This document shows, in pieces, positions 18,961 to 30,477 of a stretch of DNA of 64,000 nt; position 1 is the stretch's first letter, and each line of letters opens with the position of its first letter. Both the position numbers and the translations under genes were made by a program. The notes beneath the pieces are model-generated. The model did not search any database, had not been told where the DNA came from, and was given only the letters and a program-made list of their open reading frames with translations. The stretch comes from Porphyridium purpureum (Eukaryota): positions 1 to 64,000 of the forward strand of contig VRMN01000005.1 in NCBI GenBank assembly GCA_008690995.1, given 5' to 3'.

Positions 18961-19350
18961 CCGGAAATGTACAATTCATGGTGTTAAATCAAACTTGATG
19001 TATACATACACTCTGCTCACCTGGACCATTGCTTACAAAGCAGACAGCGGCAGGGTGCCACGCGCGTGGCTGGCGGCCTGCCTGAGCGGCGTATGGCCAC
19101 TGCATCCTGCGTTGGTGTCCAGAACGCGCGCGATCAAACCAAAAAATGCGCGCGGTCCGTCCTCATCAGCGATTACTCCTGCGCGAAGATCGTCCGTTCA
19201 GGCTCAAGGCCTAGGAGGCATCGAGCCTTCCATGGAGACACACGAGCTGCTGCTGCATGCCTGAAGTGCGTCTTGTCGGCGCACGAGCGCCCAGAAGAGT
19301 GCCCTTGTTCTTCTTCCTCGGTGCTCGCGCGTGTGTGCGCGCGCCGCAAA

Positions 19351-19652
19351 CGTGGAAAGTTGCCCGTCCCACTCGTCGATGGGCGTGCGGAAGGGCGAGT
19401 GCGAACGTACCGGGACGTCGTGACGGGGATTCAGCGGGTGTAATGCGATGTGACTCGACTAGCGTCCCGCCGGATGCCGATGTGACGTGACTCGATGTGG
19501 TCAGATTGCATCAACAAGGACCCGGCGGGCGTCTATATAGTGGGTGCGGTCGCGCAGAGATGGCAGACGGATAAGCCTAGAAGAAAAGAGAGAAGGTAAG
19601 GGAAGGGGAATAGTAAAAGGGTTCTTCGTTGATCGTTAACAGAAAACCCACG
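19351..19652 (+). repeat. 5' LTR of outer element (CGTGG...CCACG)
   Basis: Identical by eye to 29915-30216. TATATA at 19534; 5-bp terminal inverted repeat. Confidence 0.97.
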
Positions 19653-19669
19653 TGGTATCATCGCCGGTT
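19653..19669 (+). other. Primer-binding site (tRNA-iMet type) of outer element
   Basis: TGGTATCATCGCCGGTT immediately after the LTR. TGGTATCA is complementary to the 3' end of eukaryotic initiator tRNA-Met. Confidence 0.85.
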
Positions 19670-19712
19670 CGGCGGGTGAGGAGCGGTAGTCTCTGGTGCG
19701 GGGCCTGTCGGG

Positions 19713-20453
19713 ATGGACGAGGAGACGGGGCCAGTTGTGAGGCCGGCGCGGCTCAGCCAGTTCGCGGGGCAGCGGAACCAGCGAGTGGTGATGAACTGGT
19801 TGTTCGAAGTGGAGACGAAGGTTCTGCCGTTCGCCAGCTCTGAGCGCGAAGGAGTCAACGTAGCCATGAGCTACTTGACGGATACTGCATTGCAGTGGTT
19901 GCGTGGCCTGCCGGTCCGTCCAGAGAATTGGGCCGGGTTTCGAACGGTGTTTATGGAACAGTTCTTGCCGGCGGACTACAAGCGTCGCGCGCGAGATGCG
20001 CTGCATGGATGGCGCCAGACGAGGGGCGTAGCGGTGTACGCGGCCGAGTTCAGGGACCTGGTCCTAGCGTGTGAGGACGTGGGTGCCGCGGAGGCGTTGG
20101 ACAAGTTCACGCGTGGACTTAAGCCCGCCATAGCGTTCGAAGTTATGAAGGAGAATCCAAGTAGCCTCGATGAGGCCTGCCGAGTTGCCCTTTGCGCGGA
20201 GGACGCATTCGTGGCGGCGCGTCGCGGTTCGCCATCATCCCAGGGTCTTGGGATCCACCATCGCTCAGGCCCGACGCGCGCTTTCGACGTGCCGTATGGA
20301 GAGAGCTCGGCACCAATGGAAATCGGGGCGCAGGCTATGGAGGTAACCTGTTACAACTGCGAGGAACGCGGGCACTTTGCGCGAGACTGCCCCAAGCCGC
20401 ACCGCGCGCGAGCGCAGGCGCAGCCGGGAAAAGGCGCCCCGCGCCGAGACTAG
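19713..20453 (+). CDS. gag: Gag of outer element (Ty3/Gypsy Retrotrans_gag type with PMEIG motif and CCHC knuckle)
   Basis: W..F...F...F, RRARD.L..RQ, KFTRGLKP, APMEIG, CYNCEERGHFARDC. Confidence 0.93.
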   Translation: MDEETGPVVRPARLSQFAGQRNQRVVMNWLFEVETKVLPFASSEREGVNVAMSYLTDTALQWLRGLPVRPENWAGFRTVFMEQFLPADYKRRARDALHGWRQTRGVAVYAAEFRDLVLACEDVGAAEALDKFTRGLKPAIAFEVMKENPSSLDEACRVALCAEDAFVAARRGSPSSQGLGIHHRSGPTRAFDVPYGESSAPMEIGAQAMEVTCYNCEERGHFARDCPKPHRARAQAQPGKGAPRRD

Positions 20454-20471
20454 GGCAGGTGTCGGCGCGGG
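20426..20471 (+). other. -1 programmed ribosomal frameshift signal (outer element)
   Basis: G_GGA_AAA heptamer in gag frame (20426-20432), 5-nt spacer, perfect 10-bp stem CCCGCGCCGA (20438-20447) / TCGGCGCGGG (20462-20471). pol is in the -1 frame. Confidence 0.85.
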
Positions 20472-23335
20472 AGCCGTCAGAACTTCTGACGTTGCACGTT
20501 CGCTTCTGCGGGAAACGTGCGATGGCAATCGTAGACTGTGGCGCCACACATGTCTTTGTGGATAAGGCATGGGTGCGCCATTCAGGGTTATTATCATTTT
20601 GCGAAGCGACACCGGGACTTCAGGCCGTCCTTGCCGACGGGCGCAAGACTAATGTTGTCGGGAGCCTTCTCGGTCATTTGGAGCTGAACGGCATCGGGTC
20701 ACGTCGCTGCCGTGCGATTGTATGTCCGGCACTGATGACCGACCTCGTCATCGGTATGGAGTTCCTGACGCGTACTGGGATGGTCATTGATTACGAGGAC
20801 GGGAGCATTTTCATGCGTAAGCGGGAAGATATGAACTTGAAAAGGGACAAGGAGCAGAACGGGAGCGCAGGGCGCACGAGCGGAGGAACGGCTGGGCCGG
20901 GCAGAGAGCAGAACGAGAGCGCAGGGCGCACGAGCGGAGGAACGGCTGGGCCGGGCAGAGAGCAGAACGGGAGCGCAGGGCGCACGAGCGGACGAACGGC
21001 TGGGCCGGGCAGAGAGCAGAACGGGAGCGCAGGGCACGTGGAAGCAAGCTCTGTCAATCCGCAGCCGCGAAATCAAGGACGGAGCGCGGGGCGCTCGAGC
21101 GTACATGTGGACGGGCCATGCGTGAACCGAGACACAAGCGCGGGGCGCGTGCATGAAAAGAACGTCGGAAAGTCATCAGGGCTGAGCGATGAAGAGAGCG
21201 CGGGGAGCTCCAACGCATGCTCGACAGGAGCGAACGGTTACGAGAACGGGAATATGAGCCCGGAGCGCGTAGATTGCGAAACAGATAGGCCGAACATGGG
21301 GGCGAATGTCGAGGTCCATTCGAACCAAGCATGCAAAGGCACCCCGTTGGCGAAGTCGGCTGAGTGCCGCGAAACGGAGGTACGGACGCGAGGAAGGGAC
21401 CAAGTGATGGGCAAAACGAAGGCGAGGAGCAACACGGACCCTGCGCAAGACTCGCTAGTCAGGAGTAAAATCGGGTCGCGGCATGGCGGCAGTGCGTTGA
21501 AGGAAACCGCATACCCTTCCGGAGACTGTAGCCTGATCCCAGAACCTGATTCGCCGGGGGAGGCACAAACCGGCGACATAGCGTCAAGTTCAAGCGACGA
21601 TGGAGCGCCAAATGCGATACGAGGTATTCGACGCGCAATGACATGGGTCGATCGTCTCGCCCTTGGCACCACAGTTTCAAATGTGCCCGACGGACACGCG
21701 CTCCTGCACATGCCTGCTCGCACGTCGTGCGAGGTTTGTACAAGGGCGAAGCTGAAAATGCGGCCGTCTTACCGAATTGATGTCGACGCGCACGCGCGAG
21801 CACCTGGGGTCGCTGCACGCTTTGACGAAGAAATAGGGGTGGACCTGGTCGACGCCGGCGCCAAGGTCCGTTCGCGGGAAGGATATCGATACATCCTGAC
21901 ACATGTCGACGAGCACACGGGGTGGATAGAAGTCGCGGGAGTCGTCGATAAGACTGCCCTGGCCTGCCGCGAGGCGCTTGTCGAGTGCCAAGCTGGGAGA
22001 GATTGGCCGAAACGGATGCGCACAGATTCGGGCAGCGAGTTTAGGGGCGCGTTCGCGCGCGTTCTGCGCGAGAGGAACGTTGAACATACCCTCTGCATCC
22101 CTCATAGACCGAACGGACACGCGCGACTGGAAAGACTGCACCACACGTTGAATGCCGTCATTCGTTGCCTCTTATGGCAATCGGGTTTGCACGTCGTCTG
22201 GTTTTTCAGAGCAGCCAAATTCTTCGCGTTCTGGTACAATCGGGTGCACCTGGGTAGGGACGGACTAACTCCCTTTGAGCGCAGATACGGACAGGGATGG
22301 GTCGAGAGCGGCAAGCCATGGCTGATGGCTCCATTCGGATCGCGGGTGGTCTATAAAGTGGACGACGTAGCCAACAAGTTCGCTCCTACCACGCGCGAGG
22401 GAGTGGTCGTCGGGGCTCGGGACCACCCCGCCGCCCTCGAAGTTCTCGAGACAGGGTCTGGAGCGACGACGTGGACAAGAGATTTCAGAGTATTCAAAGA
22501 CTTCACCATGCGCGTGCCGGGCGCAGAACCGCTCGCAGAAATGGAAAAGGTGATCGCGTACGATCCGGACGGGGATTTGGCAGTCGCACAGCGCGACAAC
22601 GTCGCGTCGGAAGAGACGGGAATCAAAGCGAGGGTTGAAGCAATCACGGAACGCCTGAAGGCCATCGACGAGCGGGAAAAGCAGCTAAGCCAGGAGGTCG
22701 CGGCGCGGCGGGCGGCTAAGGAGGGCAAAGAAATCAGGCGTACAAAGAAGAACGCCCGTCGCTCGGCCCGAATAGCGGCGCGCTTTCCTTCCGTGACCAT
22801 AAATGTTACCAGGGTAATGAGCAGACGAGAAGCCACCACGGATGGAAGGGCAGCTGAGGCCATTGAGAATGAGCTCGGGCAAATGCGGCGCTTCGGCGTG
22901 TGGGATCCGGAACCGGTCACTCTGAACTCCATTACCGAGGGACTTATTGTAAGGGCGCACATGGTGGTAGCCGAAAAGCACACGGAGCGTCCTGTTGAGG
23001 AGCGCAAGATCAAGGCAAGGCTCGTGGCCGGGGGGGATCGCATTACGGACATGACGGGGGTCCCAGTGTCTCTTACCGTTCCCTACGAGGCGCCGGCATC
23101 TTTAGCTGCGCTAAGGATCGTGCTGGCGTGGGCGCAGATGAACGAATTAGAAGTGGGCTTTGTTGACATCACCAGCGCCTACCTGCAGGCCGAGTGCAGC
23201 GGGGGACCGGTGTATGTAATCCTTCCCAGCGAGGCAGGCGGGAAGACGGGCACCGCCCATCATCTCCGCAAGGCAATGTACGGATTACCGAGAGCGGGAG
23301 CGGACTTCGCGCGCGAAGCTCGTAGTCGCTTGTTG
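20432..23335 (+). CDS. pol: Outer element Pol, 5' part: protease, repeat-rich linker, integrase, N-terminal half of Copia-type RT
   Basis: PR IVDCGATH; IN H-x3-H-x6-C-x2-C, VDLVD, TDSGSEF, LERL; RT AIENEL, KARLVAGG, VDITSAYLQ, LRKAMYGL. Broken at 23335 by the insertion. Confidence 0.93.
20852..21035 (+). repeat. In-frame 54-bp tandem repeat, 3.4 copies (EQNGSAGRTSGGTAGPGR)
   Basis: Units start at 20852, 20906, 20960 and 21014 (partial). Confidence 0.95.
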
Positions 23336-23628
23336 TGTTATCCGTTCGACCCCAGTCACCTAGAACGGTTCGGTTAATCCGAAACCGGTAAGCCGTTAAA
23401 CCGTCAGACCGTTTAACCGTTTCTAGAAGCTTCTAGAGGTTCCAGAAACTTCTAGACGCGCGCAGAAATGCCAATGGTTTGCATTGTCATTTCTCTTGGC
23501 GCCTTGCTGTCCCTAGCGGAAGTAAGGGTATAAAAAGGCGACGCGCCTGCCCGGACTAGCCGGTCAGGTCTTGCTCGGAGACAGAAGAGGTAAGAAGAAG
23601 CAGAGTAAAAGGCACAGCATTGGTAACA
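23336..23628 (+). repeat. 5' LTR of inner Gypsy
   Basis: Matches 28504-28796 except for two adjacent bases (23404-23405). TATAAAAA at 23529. Confidence 0.97.
23421..23457. promoter_or_regulatory. Two tandem heat-shock elements in Gypsy LTR (second copy at 28589-28625)
   Basis: TTCtaGAAgcTTCtaGAg (23421-23438) and TTCcaGAAacTTCtaGAc (23440-23457) are alternating nGAAn units about 70 bp upstream of the TATA box. Confidence 0.75.
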
Positions 23629-23630
23629 TT

Positions 23631-23647
23631 TGGTATCATCGCTGGTT
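23631..23647 (+). other. Primer-binding site (tRNA-iMet type) of inner Gypsy
   Basis: TGGTATCATCGCTGGTT, 2 nt (TT) after the LTR-terminal CA. Confidence 0.85.
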
Positions 23648-24200
23648 ACCTGGGGTTGCTCTAAGGTTCTCTTAGAGTTTCTCTGGGGTTGCCTGGGTGG
23701 GAGAGTCTGCGGGTAAGGGGGTTCGAGTAAGTCGATCCGGAGGGTGCGACGGGTGGAAGCGGGTCTCAGTCTTGGCTGTACGATAGGCCTAGGCCTTGAC
23801 GGCGGACTCGCTCTCTGCCTTAGCACGTATTAGTAGGCAAGAGCCGTAACGGTCAGCCTTCACTAGGATTCATCCTAGTGTCGCACGACCACCTTTGCGA
23901 AGGTAGGCGCCGAACACCTCCATATAAGATCGCATCTATAATCCCCGCCCCAGTGCAAAGGCCCGGGCCGCTCCCCATCCAGCGCAACAGAGGAGGATTG
24001 CTGTGTGCTTTGTTGTGTGTGCGTGAGAAGATTGCTGTGCGTGTGTGTGTGCGTGAGAGGACAGCTTCGTGTGTCGGTTTGTGTTCGTGAGGGCGACCGA
24101 GCCCGTTCGTGGTGCGCGCAGCTGTTGGAGAAAGTGAGCATCGGAGGCTTGCTGTTCGTGTCGTTATTGTGATCGGTGAGCGTGCTTTAGTCCAGAAAGC

Positions 24201-25007
24201 ATGGAGATTGATTCGGAGACGCTGGGACCACGTGGCCCGAAGGAGGCCCGTCTGATGAGGTTCGACGGGAAGCGTGACCTTCTGGTTGTGAAGACGTGGT
24301 TGTTCCAGGCGAGAAAGAAGATCTTGGGCCGGTTGTTGGAGAGCATCCACCCGGACGATTTGGAGAAACGTCTGCTTGCGGAGAGGCGTGCTGTGGACTT
24401 GGCTTCTGACTATTTCGAGGGAGAGGCGCTTCATTGGTGGGTTCTAAACTGCGAACGCTACCCGCAGGAGATCCCCACGACGTGGAATGATTTTGCTGCC
24501 CTCGTGAGTGCTCGGTTCACGCCGCAGGATTCGATCAGGCGTGCAAGGGACAAGTTGACGCGTCTTTCGCAGAAAGGCCCGGCCCATGCGTATGTGGCGG
24601 CTTTTCAGGACGCGGCACTTGTGATTCCGGACTTGTCGGACGCAGAAATGATGGACCGCTTTGTGAGGGGTCTGAAGCCCGAGGTCCGCTTGGAAGTTTA
24701 CAAGCGAGGAGTGAGTACGTTTGCGGAGGCTGCGCAGGTGGCGGTGGTCGTGGATGACGCCATTCATGCGACTCGCGGCGTGCGTGATTCAAGTGTGAGG
24801 ACGCCATTTTTCGGTCGCGCAGCGCAGGAAGGACCTGTCCCGATGGAGCTGGGACATGTGCAGGGTCAGAGGCGTGTTCGAAGCGAGCTCAAATGCTGGA
24901 ATTGTGGAAAGCCGGGACACATCGCCAGGAAGTGTCCCGAGGCAAGGAAGACTATCCAGCAGCTGGAGGGAGACTCGCTGGAGTCAAAAAACGAGGAGCT
25001 CGAGTAG
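24201..25007 (+). CDS. gag: Gag of inner Gypsy
   Basis: A..WW, TWNDF, RRARDKL..L.Q, RFVRGLKP, PVPMELG, CWNCGKPGHIARKC. Confidence 0.95.
   Translation: MEIDSETLGPRGPKEARLMRFDGKRDLLVVKTWLFQARKKILGRLLESIHPDDLEKRLLAERRAVDLASDYFEGEALHWWVLNCERYPQEIPTTWNDFAALVSARFTPQDSIRRARDKLTRLSQKGPAHAYVAAFQDAALVIPDLSDAEMMDRFVRGLKPEVRLEVYKRGVSTFAEAAQVAVVVDDAIHATRGVRDSSVRTPFFGRAAQEGPVPMELGHVQGQRRVRSELKCWNCGKPGHIARKCPEARKTIQQLEGDSLESKNEELE
24986..24992 (+). other. -1 frameshift slippery site A_AAA_AAC (inner Gypsy)
   Basis: Canonical heptamer in gag frame just before the gag stop; pol is in the -1 frame; a short GAGGAGC/GTTCCTC hairpin follows. Confidence 0.8.
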
Positions 25008-28000
25008 AGAGGTTCCTCGGACAGTCAGAGGGAAAGGAGGCTCGCAGGCGTTACGAGACCTCTAGGGGCGGCAATGAAGACCGCTGTGGTGGCCTTGGTA
25101 AGCCAAGGTCTGGCTGTCCGACACCTTGTGGGCGAAACTCGAGCGCCAATCAGCCCGTGATCAAGGAACTTGGAGGGATGGGAGCTGCCATGCTTCTTCG
25201 AGTTCGAGGAAAAGTGCACAAGTCCGACGGAGAGGCCACGTTTTTGATTGACAGTGGCGCGACGGACAACTTTATGAGCGTGGACTTTGTGCTGAAATCC
25301 GACGGCCTGAAGCAGAAGGCGTCGTGGAAGAGAGATCATGTGACCCTAGCGGATGGGTCTGTATTGGAAACAGCCGGAGAGGTCTCCAATGTCAAGTTTG
25401 AACTGAGCGATGGGTACTCAGGGGCCGCTAACTTTGCCATTTGCCGGATTGCGGGACAAGACGCAATTCTGGGCATGGAGTGGCTGAAGCGGGAGAACCC
25501 AGTGATTGATTGGCAGTCTGGCATGTTGGCCTACGGAGAGAAGAAGGCCTGGAGCATGACGCAGATGCTGGTGCCGCGGAAAGAGCTCCGTCGGCTGTTG
25601 AAGAGTCAGGAGGTAGAAGAGTGCTACCTCGGCGTGCTGAAAGGAAGGGAGGAGCCCTGTTCAGTGGAGCGCAAAGACGCTGACTCTGTGAGAAAGATGC
25701 TCAAGGATTTCGAAAATCTGTTCGAGGAGCCACGAGGGCTGCCTGAGAGCCGAACAGTGGAGCATGTGATTAGGCTGAAAGATGAGAAGCCTGTGAGAGT
25801 GGGCAGGGTCTACCGACTGAGCCCTGCGGAGTTGAAAGTCCTCCGAGAGACTTTGGATGACTTGCTGGACAAAGGATTCGTCCAGCCGAGTCAGAGCCCG
25901 TTTGGAGCACCCGTGCTGTTCGTGAAGAAGAAAGACGGCAGCATGAGGATGTGCGTCGATTATCGGGCGTTGAACGACGCAACTGTGAAGGACCGGTATC
26001 CGTTGCCGAACATGGATGAGTTGCTGGATCGACTGGGCGCAGCTCACTGTTTTTCAAAGTTGGATTTGGCATCGGGATACCACCAGTTGCGTGTTCGGGG
26101 AGAGGATGTGCCGAAGACCGCGTTCCAGACCAGGTACGGACAGTTCGAGTTCCGTGTGATGCCGTTTGGTCTTTGCAACGCGCCGGCAACTTTTCAGAGG
26201 GCCATGAACGAGCTGTTTGCAGATCTGCTGGACAAGACCGTCATTGTCTACTTGGACGATATTTTGGTCTTCACCAAGGATAGGCAGTCGCACAGCGAGG
26301 CCCTCAAGGAAGTGTTGTCGCGCTTGCAAAAGGCAGGGTATCGTTTGAAGCGCAAGAAATGCAGCTTCTTCGTTTCTGAAGTCGAATACCTGGGAAACAT
26401 TGTCGGTAACGGTTGTGTGAAGATGGATCCACGGAAGGTGGAAGCTTTGAAAGATTGGCCAGTGCCAAAGACGGTGACGGAGTTGAGATCCTTTTTGGGA
26501 ATGACAAACTGGTTTCGCAGGTTTGCCAAAGGATACTCTACCGTCGTGGCGCCGCTGACTTCGCTGTTGCAGAACGCAAAGTCGAAGAAGCAGCTGATCG
26601 AACTGGGAGATGAAGGCAAGTCGGCCTTCAAGAAGATTGTGGGGATGTTGACGGAAGCGCCGGTGTTGGCTTTGCCAGACCCTGAAAAGCCATTCGAGGT
26701 GTACACAGACCGCTCCGAAGTCGCGGTGGGGGGATGGCTGGCACAGGAAGGCAGACCGGTCGCGTTTACGTCAAGGAAGCTGCTGGACCGAGAGACCAGG
26801 TACAGCAGCTATGAAGGTGAGCTCATGGCCGTCATTCACTGTCTGCGAGAGTTTCGACCTTATCTGTACGGAGCACAGTTTGTGCTTCATACAGATCATG
26901 AGGCGTTGAAACATTTGATGACGCAGAAGGAGCTGAATGGCCGGCAAGCACGGTGGCTGGACTTTTTAGCCGAGTTTGACATCACGATCGACTATGTGAA
27001 GGGAAAGTCGAACGTGGTAGCCGATGCTTTGTCGAGGAAGCCAGAGTTACATGCGCTAGAGTACCAAGTTCGGTGTGATGAATTTGGTGCGGGTTTCCAG
27101 GCATTCGTGGGTTCGTACTCGAGTGACCCAGACTTTGGTACTTTGATGGGTGACTTACCGACCCACCAGGGTTTTCGAACCGAAGCTGGGCTCTTGTACT
27201 TGAGGAATCGCGTTTGCGTGCCGAGGAAGTTCAGAGAGCGTGTCATGCAGCTCCACCACGATATCCCGACAGCAGGACACCGTGGAGCCGACACGACGTA
27301 TGCATCTTTGATCACTCGCTTCTACTGGCCAAAGATGAAGCGAGACGTGAGCCGTTTTGTGAAGACTTGTCACGCATGCCAAGTGACAAAGTCAGAGAAT
27401 CGGTCGTTTGGAAAGCTGAAGCCCTTGTCGATCCCAGAAGGACCTTGGGTCGACATTTCGATGGACTTTGTGACGGAGCTGCCTCGGAGCGAAGGCAGCT
27501 GTGATGCAATTATGACTGTGGTGGATCGCTATTCGAAGATTGCGCTGTTCATCCCGACGCGCAAGGACTTGACAGCAAAGCGTTGTGCTGACTTGTTCGT
27601 GAAGCACGTCGTGAGCCGTTTCGGATACCCCAAGTCAATTGTATCGGACCGAGATCCGCTGTTTACGTCCACGTTTTGGCAGCAGTTGAGCAAGCGGGTG
27701 GGCATGAAGTTGGCTATGTCTACCGCCAACCACCCGCAGACAGATGGCCAAACTGAGCGAGTGAACCGCGTGATTCGGGAAATGCTCAAGTTGATGGCGA
27801 CGAATAGTGGCTGGGTGCGAGACTTGCCGTTGTACGAGTTTGCGTACAACTCTGCACCAAGCAGTGCCACTGGATTCGCGCCGTTCAAAGTGGTATATGG
27901 AAGGGATCCTTGGTTTCCACCGAGCGAAGGGTGGAGGCCTGCGCGCGACGGACAGACAAAGGACATGGCGGAGCACTGGTTTCGCCTGTGCAAAGTCCAT

Positions 28001-28384
28001 GAAGAAGTCCGCGACAATTTGATCGAAGCCCAGGGGAGAATGCAGAAGTTCTTCGATCGACGCAAGGATGCCCGGGAGTTTCAAGTTGGTGATCAAGTGT
28101 TGATCACGGCGCCGCAATTGCGGCCGAACAAGAGTGATTTGGCGGCACCAAAGTTTCTTGGTCCGGTGCCTGTCATTGAGAAGGTAAGCTCGCATGCTTA
28201 CCGAGTGATTTTGCCCGAGGGTGTGGCTTGTCATGATGTTTTTCCGATCCAACATCTGAAGCCATACTATGGACGCGAAGACTACATGGCAGGGGAAAAT
28301 GATGAAGAAGTACCCGACGACCTGCCAACGTCCGATTCTGAGCCAGACTTGTTGAAAATTATCGAAGAGTCTGACTCTGAATGA
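24986..28384 (+). CDS. pol: Pol of inner Gypsy: protease, RT, RNase H, integrase (no chromodomain)
   Basis: LIDSGAT; SPFGAPVLFVKKKDGSMRMCVDYRALN, MPFGL.NAP, YLDD; VYTD.S, ELMA, TDH, N.VADALSR; HHCC, DFV/SDRD/QTDGQTER, GP(Y/F)-like motif. Uninterrupted ORF. Confidence 0.97.
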   Translation, partial: KKRGARVERFLGQSEGKEARRRYETSRGGNEDRCGGLGKPRSGCPTPCGRNSSANQPVIKELGGMGAAMLLRVRGKVHKSDGEATFLIDSGATDNFMSVDFVLKSDGLKQKASWKRDHVTLADGSVLETAGEVSNVKFELSDGYSGAANFAICRIAGQDAILGMEWLKRENPVIDWQSGMLAYGEKKAWSMTQMLVPRKELRRLLKSQEVEECYLGVLKGREEPCSVERKDADSVRKMLKDFENLFEEPRGLPESRTVEHVIRLKDEKPVRVGRVYRLSPAELKVLRETLDDLLDKGFVQPSQSPFGAPVLFVKKKDGSMRMCVDYRALNDATVKDRYPLPNMDELLDRLGAAHCFSKLDLASGYHQLRVRGEDVPKTAFQTRYGQFEFRVMPFGLCNAPATFQRAMNELFADLLDKTVIVYLDDILVFTKDRQSHSEALKEVLSRLQKAGYRLKRKKCSFFVSEVEYLGNIVGNGCVKMDPRKVEALKDWPVPKTVTELRSFLGMTNWFRRFAKGYSTVVAPLTSLLQNAKSKKQLIELGDEGKSAFKKIVGMLTEAPVLALPDPEKPFEVYTDRSEVAVGGWLAQEGRPVAFTSRKLLDRETRYSSYEGELMAVIHCLREFRPYLYGAQFVLHTDHEALKHLMTQKELNGRQARWLDFLAEFDITIDYVKGKSNVVADALSRKPELHALEYQVRCDEFGAGFQAFVGSYSSDPDFGTLMGDLPTHQGFRTEAGLLYLRNRVCVPRKFRERVMQLHHDIPTAGHRGADTTYASLITRFYWPKMKRDVSRFVKTCHACQVTKSENRSFGKLKPLSIPEGPWVDISMDFVTELPRSEGSCDAIMTVVDRYSKIALFIPTRKDLTAKRCADLFVKHVVSRFGYPKSIVSDRDPLFTSTFWQQLSKRVGMKLAMSTANHPQTDGQTERVNRVIREMLKLMATNSGWVRDLPLYEFAYNSAPSSATGFAPFKVVYGRDPWFPPSEGWRPARDGQTKDMAEHWFRLCKVHEEVRDNLIEAQGRMQKFFDRRKDAREFQVGDQVLITAPQLRPNKSDLAAPKFLGPVPVIEKVSSHAYRVILPEGVACHDVFPIQHLKPYYGREDYMAGENDEEVPDDLPTSDSEPDLLKIIEESDSE

Positions 28385-28489
28385 CTTGGGAATTGTGAGA
28401 AGTTTGCTAGGCAGAGGTTTTCTCCCGGAGCGCGGGTTCCTCGAGCCAAGAATGCAACTTAGTTTGAAGTCTCGCCGAGACGTCGAGCC

Positions 28490-28503
28490 AAGAGGGGGGG
28501 AGA
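28490..28503 (+). other. Polypurine tract of inner Gypsy
   Basis: AAGAGGGGGGGAGA directly before the 3' LTR. Confidence 0.92.
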
Positions 28504-28796
28504 TGTTATCCGTTCGACCCCAGTCACCTAGAACGGTTCGGTTAATCCGAAACCGGTAAGCCGTTAAACCGGTAGACCGTTTAACCGTTTCTAGAAGCTT
28601 CTAGAGGTTCCAGAAACTTCTAGACGCGCGCAGAAATGCCAATGGTTTGCATTGTCATTTCTCTTGGCGCCTTGCTGTCCCTAGCGGAAGTAAGGGTATA
28701 AAAAGGCGACGCGCCTGCCCGGACTAGCCGGTCAGGTCTTGCTCGGAGACAGAAGAGGTAAGAAGAAGCAGAGTAAAAGGCACAGCATTGGTAACA
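28504..28796 (+). repeat. 3' LTR of inner Gypsy
   Basis: Direct repeat of 23336-23628, followed by TSD TGTTG. Confidence 0.97.
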
Positions 28797-28801
28797 TGTT
28801 G

Positions 28802-30007
28802 CGTCTCGGATGGGTGGAGGTCACAGCAGGAGTGTATATCCGTAGAAGCCTCGAGGGGAACGCGGCAGGACTCGTCTTGGTAATGTACGTTGACGACGTG
28901 GTCTTAGCGGGGCGGAAAGACGAGGCACGGAATGCCATGAGTGAGTTATATCAAGAATTCGTGATCGACGAGCAACCGCAGTGGCTCGGCGAGAGCCCGG
29001 TCCTTCACCTTGGCATGCGGATTTCCAGAACGAACGGAAGGGTAAAGATTGATGGTACGGACTACGCAAAGACCATTATAGATGAGTACGAGCGCGACTC
29101 GACTGTGAGGACGAGGGGCACGCGCGATGCGGCAACCCCCATGGTATTTCCAGAGGCGGCGCTCTACGACGAAGCGGAAGTCAGTACGACTTGCCGGCAA
29201 CACGTCGGACGCCTAATGTGGCTCGCACGCACGGTAAAGCCCGAAATAGCATACTCGGTCGCATATGTCTCGCGCTTTGTGGACAAGTGGAGCAAGGCAG
29301 CATCGGCGATTCTCGACCGAATCGTGCGGTACGTGCACGGGAGCCAGGATAGTGTCTTGGAATACGGCAGCGCGGGGCGCCTGGGAGATCAGGTACGAAT
29401 AGTCGCCTTTTCAGATAGCGACCATGCAGGCTGTCCCGCGACGCGGCGGTCAACTTCCGGCGGTTGCGTATACTTCTCAAACGGAGAAGAGAACTACTTG
29501 GTAGATTGGTTTTCGAAAGCACAACGGGCCTCGGTATTATCCACCGCGGAGGCGGAACTCACCGCCCTTGGCAGGATCATGCGAACTACGATTCCTAACG
29601 CCGAAGTTGTAATCCGAGGGCTCGTTGGAACGCGCGTACCGCTCGCTGTGTGTTGCGACAGCGAAGCAGCGGTGAAGGCCGTTCGACGAGGATACTCCGC
29701 CAAGATGGCAAGTCTCGGGAAGACACACGGCGTCACTGTAGCCACCCTCTCGGACGCTTTTGATGGAGAAGACTCGAACCTCGTGTCTGTCCCCGGAATA
29801 TCGAATTGCGCAGACATCTTCACGAAGCCGATGGAACGAGTGGCATTTACACGTGCTATTGCCAACCTTAGGAAGGGCGCTTCCAACGATCGAGAGCGAG
29901 ACGTGCACGGGGCGCGTGGAAAGTTGCCCGTCCCACTCGTCGATGGGCGTGCGGAAGGGCGAGTGCGAACGTACCGGGACGTCGTGACGGGGATTCAGCG
30001 GGTGTAA
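28802..30007 (+). CDS. pol: Outer element Pol, 3' part: C-terminal half of Copia-type RT and Ty1/Copia RNase H
   Basis: LVMYVDDVV, VGRLMWLA...KPEIAYSV, FSDSDHAG....RRSTSG, STAEAE, CDSEAA, NCADIFTKP. Same frame as the 5' part. Confidence 0.95.
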   Translation, partial: RLGWVEVTAGVYIRRSLEGNAAGLVLVMYVDDVVLAGRKDEARNAMSELYQEFVIDEQPQWLGESPVLHLGMRISRTNGRVKIDGTDYAKTIIDEYERDSTVRTRGTRDAATPMVFPEAALYDEAEVSTTCRQHVGRLMWLARTVKPEIAYSVAYVSRFVDKWSKAASAILDRIVRYVHGSQDSVLEYGSAGRLGDQVRIVAFSDSDHAGCPATRRSTSGGCVYFSNGEENYLVDWFSKAQRASVLSTAEAELTALGRIMRTTIPNAEVVIRGLVGTRVPLAVCCDSEAAVKAVRRGYSAKMASLGKTHGVTVATLSDAFDGEDSNLVSVPGISNCADIFTKPMERVAFTRAIANLRKGASNDRERDVHGARGKLPVPLVDGRAEGRVRTYRDVVTGIQRV

Positions 30008-30216
30008 TGCGATGTGACTCGACTAGCGTCCCGCCGGATGCCGATGTGACGTGACTCGATGTGGTCAGATTGCATCAACAAGGACCCGGCGGGCGTCTAT
30101 ATAGTGGGTGCGGTCGCGCAGAGATGGCAGACGGATAAGCCTAGAAGAAAAGAGAGAAGGTAAGGGAAGGGGAATAGTAAAAGGGTTCTTCGTTGATCGT
30201 TAACAGAAAACCCACG
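29915..30216 (+). repeat. 3' LTR of outer element
   Basis: Identical to 19351-19652 and followed by TSD GCAAA. Confidence 0.97.
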
Positions 30217-30477
30217 GCAAATGCATCTGCGCTGTACACCCGTGCGTGTACAGCACCACTGTACTCACATCGAGTGCGCGTGTCATCTTTTGACGCCACG
30301 CGGCAGCGTGCAATGCACATCTCTTTGTCATCATTCTGAATTCGGGTCGCGTGTGGAAGTTGGGAGATTGTGGTTGGATCTGCGCTGACAAAGCGTGTAG
30401 CCGCACACGGGACTGGCAGGTTGATCGGAGGGTGGTGGGTGTGTGTGGAGAGGTTAGGAGCGACGTGACAAGGAAAG

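Follow-up and report, generated by a model that had tools for sequence, protein, structure and literature searches.

Termini, LTRs and target site duplication

The outer of two LTR elements nested in the 64,000-nucleotide stretch of Porphyridium purpureum DNA analyzed here (referred to as the window) ends in CG…CG, and we show that these are the true ends of its family, which produces a 5-bp target duplication upon insertion. Few features of retroelement integration are as conserved as the terminal CA. Here, given standard integrase chemistry, G is the base through which the element is attached to host DNA, with a stagger of 5 bp. Our preferred reading, with a probability of roughly 0.55, is that in this young family blunt cDNA is likely joined through a 3'-G by the element's own divergent Copia-type integrase and that the ends likely arose by replacement of the terminal base pair. 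The outer element spans 19351-30216 of the window, and its ends and the element nested within it comprise the following features:

19346..19350, + strand: left copy of the target site duplication, GCAAA (junction reading; present once in empty alleles)
19351..19652, + strand: 5' LTR of the outer element, 302 bp, CGTGG…CCACG, with 5-bp inverted ends
19653..19669, + strand: primer binding site (PBS) adjoining the 5' LTR without a spacer, 16 of 17 bases as in the PBS of the inner Gypsy element
23336..28796, + strand: nested Ty3/Gypsy element with TG…CA ends, duplication TGTTG and a CA-TT-PBS arrangement, interrupting the outer reverse transcriptase (RT) (domains, junctions)
29909..29914, + strand: weak putative polypurine tract GGGGCG directly before the 3' LTR, assigned by position
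29915..30216, + strand: 3' LTR of the outer element, same as the 5' LTR (sequence identity)
30217..30221, + strand: right copy of the target site duplication, GCAAA (junction reading, other sequencing runs)

Both LTRs of the outer element have a length of 302 bp and are 100% identical, and this identity does not extend by even one base in either direction. With a slash marking each boundary, the junctions read GCAAA/CGTGG…CCACG/TGGTATCA at the 5' LTR and GGGGCG/CGTGG…CCACG/GCAAA at the 3' LTR, so that the letters and both LTR edges given in an initial annotation of this DNA are confirmed, as is its observation that TG…CA lies 2 bp inside each end. The annotation had further claimed that the 5-bp duplication only works with CG as part of the LTR. 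This is borne out by empty alleles devoid of CG (see below) and by the 13 x 12 pairs of boundaries scanned, of which just one, 19351/30216, gave a 5-bp duplication; at the inner TG/CA boundaries (19353/30214) the duplication is reduced to a 2-bp CG match. The element has a 5-bp duplication, within the 4-6 bp of Ty1/Copia, but CG…CG in place of TG…CA, and to judge from the junctions, a finder demanding TG..CA beside a 4-6 bp duplication would reject it, as predicted. The PBS is presumably complementary to initiator-Met tRNA. At the other end, the purine run upstream of the 3' LTR stops 2 nt before it (GGGG-CG-/CG). A search of Rfam with the 5' end of the outer element gave no match.

The nested Gypsy element served as an internal control. 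It carries RVT_1, RNase H and integrase, and RVT_1 and the RT-RNase H-integrase order are found in this element only. Its ends are TGT…ACA, and among the rows listed, the flanks of its family diverge from the element at 28504 (TG) and 28796 (CA), apart from a few rows in which this happens 1-2 bases further out. The CA-TT-PBS arrangement and the absence of the two extra bases from host junctions, both part of the initial annotation, hold for the inner element. Note that its LTRs differ at two adjacent bases (23404-23405 versus 28572-28573), whereas those of the outer host element are identical; the difference may be an effect of reverse transcription or assembly.

Empty sites and further copies of the family

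Six sequencing runs were examined, out of 24 listed and 18 containing the stretch. In runs X5 and X8 a contig, read by letters, matches the left flank up to 19350 and then picks up at position 30222 of the window, and both of these empty alleles contain GCAAA once and lack CG. In run X15 a contig of 6.9 kb tracks the right flank back to 30217, followed by 3.9 kb unlike the LTR, and in X5 and X7 the right-flank contig stops exactly at 30217, as would be expected if filled and empty alleles coexist. Run X1, which may be the source of the window, shows the left junction in its filled form, together with one LTR contig of 302 bp that spans exactly 19351-19652.

The complete listing of loose ends for the outer LTR comprises 13 rows: two empty sites, two that resemble library adapter, one internal junction of polypurine tract and LTR, and eight at LTR edges. 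These eight correspond to 13 records, one of which is the interior of the element itself. In all of the remaining 12 host-junction records, among which the same insertion may recur in different runs, the terminal CG is kept, and in none does the break fall at 19353 or 19650. CG is the end of the family, as had been proposed, the joined 3' base is G, and copies with duplications abutting TG…CA, the case named as refuting this, number 0 of 12. An inner TG…CA flanked by CG on both sides could also mean that a TG…CA element integrated aberrantly on a single occasion, or that CG is itself a 2-bp duplication and GCAAA matches by chance. The absence of CG from the empty site, its retention in the 12 records and the probability of about 0.0009 for a chance 5-mer match at a fixed place make this so improbable that we regard it as refuted.

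One copy, seen in one contig, carries a T-to-C change at base 3 and starts with CGCGG, without an inner TG; it may have mutated after insertion. Among the flanks of other copies that can be read individually, AAACA, TATGG and GCAA-N lie to the left of the element and TTAAC, GCAAC and GTTTT to its right. Paired by hand, with one base unseen and one partner missing, flanks fit 5-bp duplications (GCAAC and a CAG-N-T copy). LTR starts deduced from proteins whose tails extend into the LTR were discarded because of ambiguous codons and a gene-model artefact.

By protein cluster accessions, grouped by hand, the published P. purpureum assembly holds about ten copies, and the outer Pol is 100% identical to P. 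purpureum database proteins. Identical LTRs together with presence or absence between samples point to recent movement and indicate a young, recently mobile family that is polymorphic between samples. Several copies are interrupted by an LTR of the nested Gypsy family: besides the one in the window (23336-28796), these are P0001, P0007, P0010, P0014 and P0016. The interruptions occur in both orientations and at four places in RT/RNase H, corresponding to residues 1114, 1173 (twice), 1302 and 1427 of P0005, an uninterrupted database copy of the outer Pol. Such nesting is striking for a family of some ten copies.

A Gypsy-type Gag and protease on a Copia-order Pol

The element lies in an intron-poor red algal genome, with a phycobilisome linker among the adjacent genes. 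Its coding parts are:

19713..20453, + strand: gag, with Retrotrans_gag, Ty3_capsid and zf-CCHC, Gypsy-type (domain search, alignment)
20426..20432, + strand: candidate -1 frameshift heptamer GGGAAAA in the gag/pol overlap, putative in function
20174..23335, + strand: pol part 1, with a Gypsy-type aspartic protease, a long linker, integrase and the start of RVT_2
28797..30007, + strand: pol part 2, with the remaining RT and RNase H, the frame entering the 3' LTR (domain search)

Judged by its predicted domains, the outer element is a cross-superfamily chimera that joins a Gypsy-type Gag and protease to a divergent Copia-order integrase-RT-RNase H, in agreement with the hybrid nature originally suggested. 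The Gag is 33% identical to that of the nested Gypsy element (E 1e-30), its comparison with the N-termini of five canonical Copia proteins gave E 1e-5 or worse in every case, and the protease scored best with that of the nested Gypsy. Pol follows the Copia order protease-integrase-RT-RNase H, as seen in P0005, where the Copia-type RT is recognized as RVT_2 with E 4e-15. In place of the Copia modules Retrotran_gag_2, Pol_BBD and gag_pre-integrs, none of which is found, the element has Retrotrans_gag, Ty3_capsid, gag-asp_proteas and a short finger. It has the Ty3-type capsid and protease, but neither RVT_1 nor the RT-RNase H-integrase order.

Gypsy-type Gag combined with RVT_2 occurs in 4 of 31 proteins scanned, representing the outer family and three others from P. 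purpureum; many of the remaining proteins in this set lack an N-terminal Gag region. In the pairs that were aligned, the Gags of the four chimeric families are only 23-30% identical, which argues for an old chimera. In a Gag profile search, itself weak, the sole outside match was a plant protein with Gypsy-type domains. The combination of Gypsy-type Gag and protease with a Copia-order Pol (19713-23335), in at least four P. purpureum families, is arguably as notable as the ends. The linker between protease and integrase contains a 54-bp tandem repeat (window 20845-21035).

Origin of the CG ends

We favor an origin in which TGT…ACA became CGT…ACG. In this scheme the tRNA primer would start minus-strand synthesis at the LTR edge and the cDNA would end at CG or at most one base from it, so that hardly any base would have to be removed, as in Ty1. 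The integrase would recognize C-G-3' instead of C-A-3', the second-last C being retained, and the outermost pair of an ordinary TGT…ACA would have been replaced to yield CGT…ACG. With the PBS next to the LTR, the end of the cDNA is probably CG itself or lies within one base of it. Several points favor the base-pair change. Each end is one transition away from the canonical form (CG versus CA, CG versus TG), with the second-last C kept. Since the nested Gypsy element ends in TGT…ACA, T at position 3 is expected, and an inner TG needs just one further chance base; this TG is dispensed with in the CGCGG copy. The CGCCA…TGGCG ends of Troyka, described without inner TG/CA (PMC12440569), support the same origin, and trimming is not foreign to Copia-type elements, as described for Sireviruses (PMC2829016). 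In addition, cDNA ends are made and joined by RT, RNase H and integrase, each of which is Copia-type in this element, and are not shaped by Gag and protease. The Gypsy-type Gag and protease of the outer element are real, but probably incidental to its ends.

Several features run counter to base-pair replacement with blunt joining: a perfect TG…CA lies exactly 2 bp inside both outer ends, CA-NN-PBS is the pattern of the Gypsy element that has the same primer site and Gag type, and the purine run stops early on the polypurine side (see below). The first of these also speaks for an alternative, in which an ancestral TG…CA was followed by a 2-nt spacer from the Gypsy-derived 5' part and a non-trimming Copia-type integrase made this spacer the new end. 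The Gypsy-Gag/Copia-Pol make-up, a PBS almost the same as that of the nested Gypsy and the absence of trimming by Ty1 integrase (PMC8487063) fit this idea as well. Nevertheless, we consider it unlikely: Copia-type elements with trimmed spacers exist (PMC2829016), recombination between Gag and Pol would bring in just the U5-PBS end of the Gypsy parent, yet both ends are changed, the chimera is old, and the local Gypsy spacer is TT rather than CG. CG might also be the recognized end of a longer cDNA that is trimmed back, by one base (the last A of the tRNA) on one side or two on the polypurine side. The purine run stopping 2 nt short of the 3' LTR would permit a trimmed 2-nt extension there, and trimming is described for the Copia-type Sireviruses (PMC2829016), but without a spacer between LTR and PBS at most one extra base is available at that end, and this origin, too, appears doubtful to us. 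Note that base-pair replacement also lacks a precedent for C…G among Copia elements in the plant surveys cited, where the first T is described as invariant and, in lotus, the last base is A or T (10.1101/137141, PMC9804982).

The initial annotation had seen the ends as the footprint of a hybrid. This is not supported, given that the end-making enzymes are all of Copia type, that Troyka, with CG…CG ends and no inner TG/CA, shows that a 3'-G end needs no hybrid, and that one copy, starting CGCGG, does without the inner TG. Its premise that Copia integrases do not trim stands for Ty1 (PMC8487063), but not for Sireviruses, whose 2-nt spacers are described as cleaved by integrase (PMC2829016).

Comparison with known elements

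Tnt1 is reportedly a further Copia-type element with trimmed spacers, beside the Sireviruses. The 3'-G junction, set against a near-universal 3'-A in the initial annotation, and the CG…CG motif are already known from Troyka, a group from aquatic animals with Gypsy order and a 3-bp duplication, the ends of which were confirmed with empty sites (Kojima 2025, PMC12440569). According to this description, the outer element resembles Troyka in its CG…CG termini and in an LTR length within the range of 100-400 bp. It differs in the duplication (3 bp in Troyka, 5 bp here), the ends (CGCCA…TGGCG versus CGTGG…CCACG), the order (protease-RT-RH-IN versus IN-RT-RH with RVT_2), the Gag finger (CX2CX8-10HX4C versus CX2CX4HX4C) and the host, a red alga. 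Of the hallmarks of Troyka, the outer element has the CG…CG termini; the 3-bp duplication, the RP-RT-RH-IN order and the finger are absent.

Non-canonical ends of plant Copia elements are described as one- or two-base changes of TGCA (PMC9804982). With these the outer element shares a Copia-type Pol, an LTR of about 300 bp, a gene-rich site and the non-canonical ends as such, but its first base is not T and its Gag is Gypsy-type and in a separate frame. It resembles Ty1 in the Copia domain order and, should its cDNA be flush with the LTR, in needing no trimming, but Ty1 integrase is described as needing CA at the end (PMC8487063), where the outer element has CG. The diatom elements CoDi3.2, CoDi4.2 and CoDi4.3 are likewise algal, of Copia order and described as lacking TG/CA ends (PMC2806351).

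Troyka was the only CG..CG-ended LTR retrotransposon found in the literature searched, Repbase and subscription journals being outside this search. The literature on Porphyridium, red-algal chimeras and dinoflagellate Copia elements, again apart from Repbase, did not describe the outer family, and for Halcyon, a Repbase group name, no relevant paper was found there. Provisionally, the novelty lies in the finding of CG…CG ends, convergent with those of Troyka, in an element with a Copia-type integrase and a 5-bp duplication, and in a multi-family Gypsy/Copia chimera. That CG…CG ends arose a second time, independently, offers a testable case of changing integrase end specificity, in a culturable alga and a family polymorphic between samples. 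It also reveals a blind spot in annotation: database entries for proteins of this family are ordinary gene models, and the family would be missed by surveys described as relying on TG/CA ends and discarding chimeric-looking elements (PMC6317226).

The integrase and its relatives

The outer integrase has a short finger, HxxxHxPxxxxCxxC, and an intact D-D(34)-E triad. In a tree of RT-RNase H sequences with midpoint root, 18 canonical-finger Copia proteins form a group with a support of 1.0 and the outer lineage lies outside; this tree contains 67 of 119 eligible proteins, with the canonical ones thinned to 18 and later unlabelled ones left out. The outer family has H-A at an integrase site where canonical Copia proteins have N (35/36) and G (35/36), and H-A is common to all five Porphyridium families compared. 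The site aligns with a loop of retroviral integrases that contacts the DNA end, and such changes in the active-site loop may allow recognition of CG. A wider reading, which we offer tentatively and hold to be possible rather than probable, is that end recognition switched from CA to CG independently of Troyka in an active, undescribed lineage of Gypsy/Copia recombinants, possibly with an untrimmed spacer as the end, and that this switch may mark the entire short-finger Pol clade of protists, which TG..CA-based tools would miss.

In viral contigs the LTR-start pattern gave no match, the PBS pattern gave 11 loci, none encoding a retroelement protein, and no related locus was confirmed among 155 and 43 stretches; nor was one among 16 stretches from prokaryote genomes. 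Of 45 metagenome stretches, six gave related loci, with 21-38% identity to the query; these lack a complete pair of LTRs or host junctions, and show no termini. An Atlas lookup returned unnamed clusters and two diatom clusters, to be taken as leads only. The short finger itself (window 21693-22200) belongs to a broad lineage that includes transcriptome and metagenome proteins, 46 of which were aligned, and in one short-finger relative, P0034, an AAA_28 NTPase-like domain is fused after RNase H.
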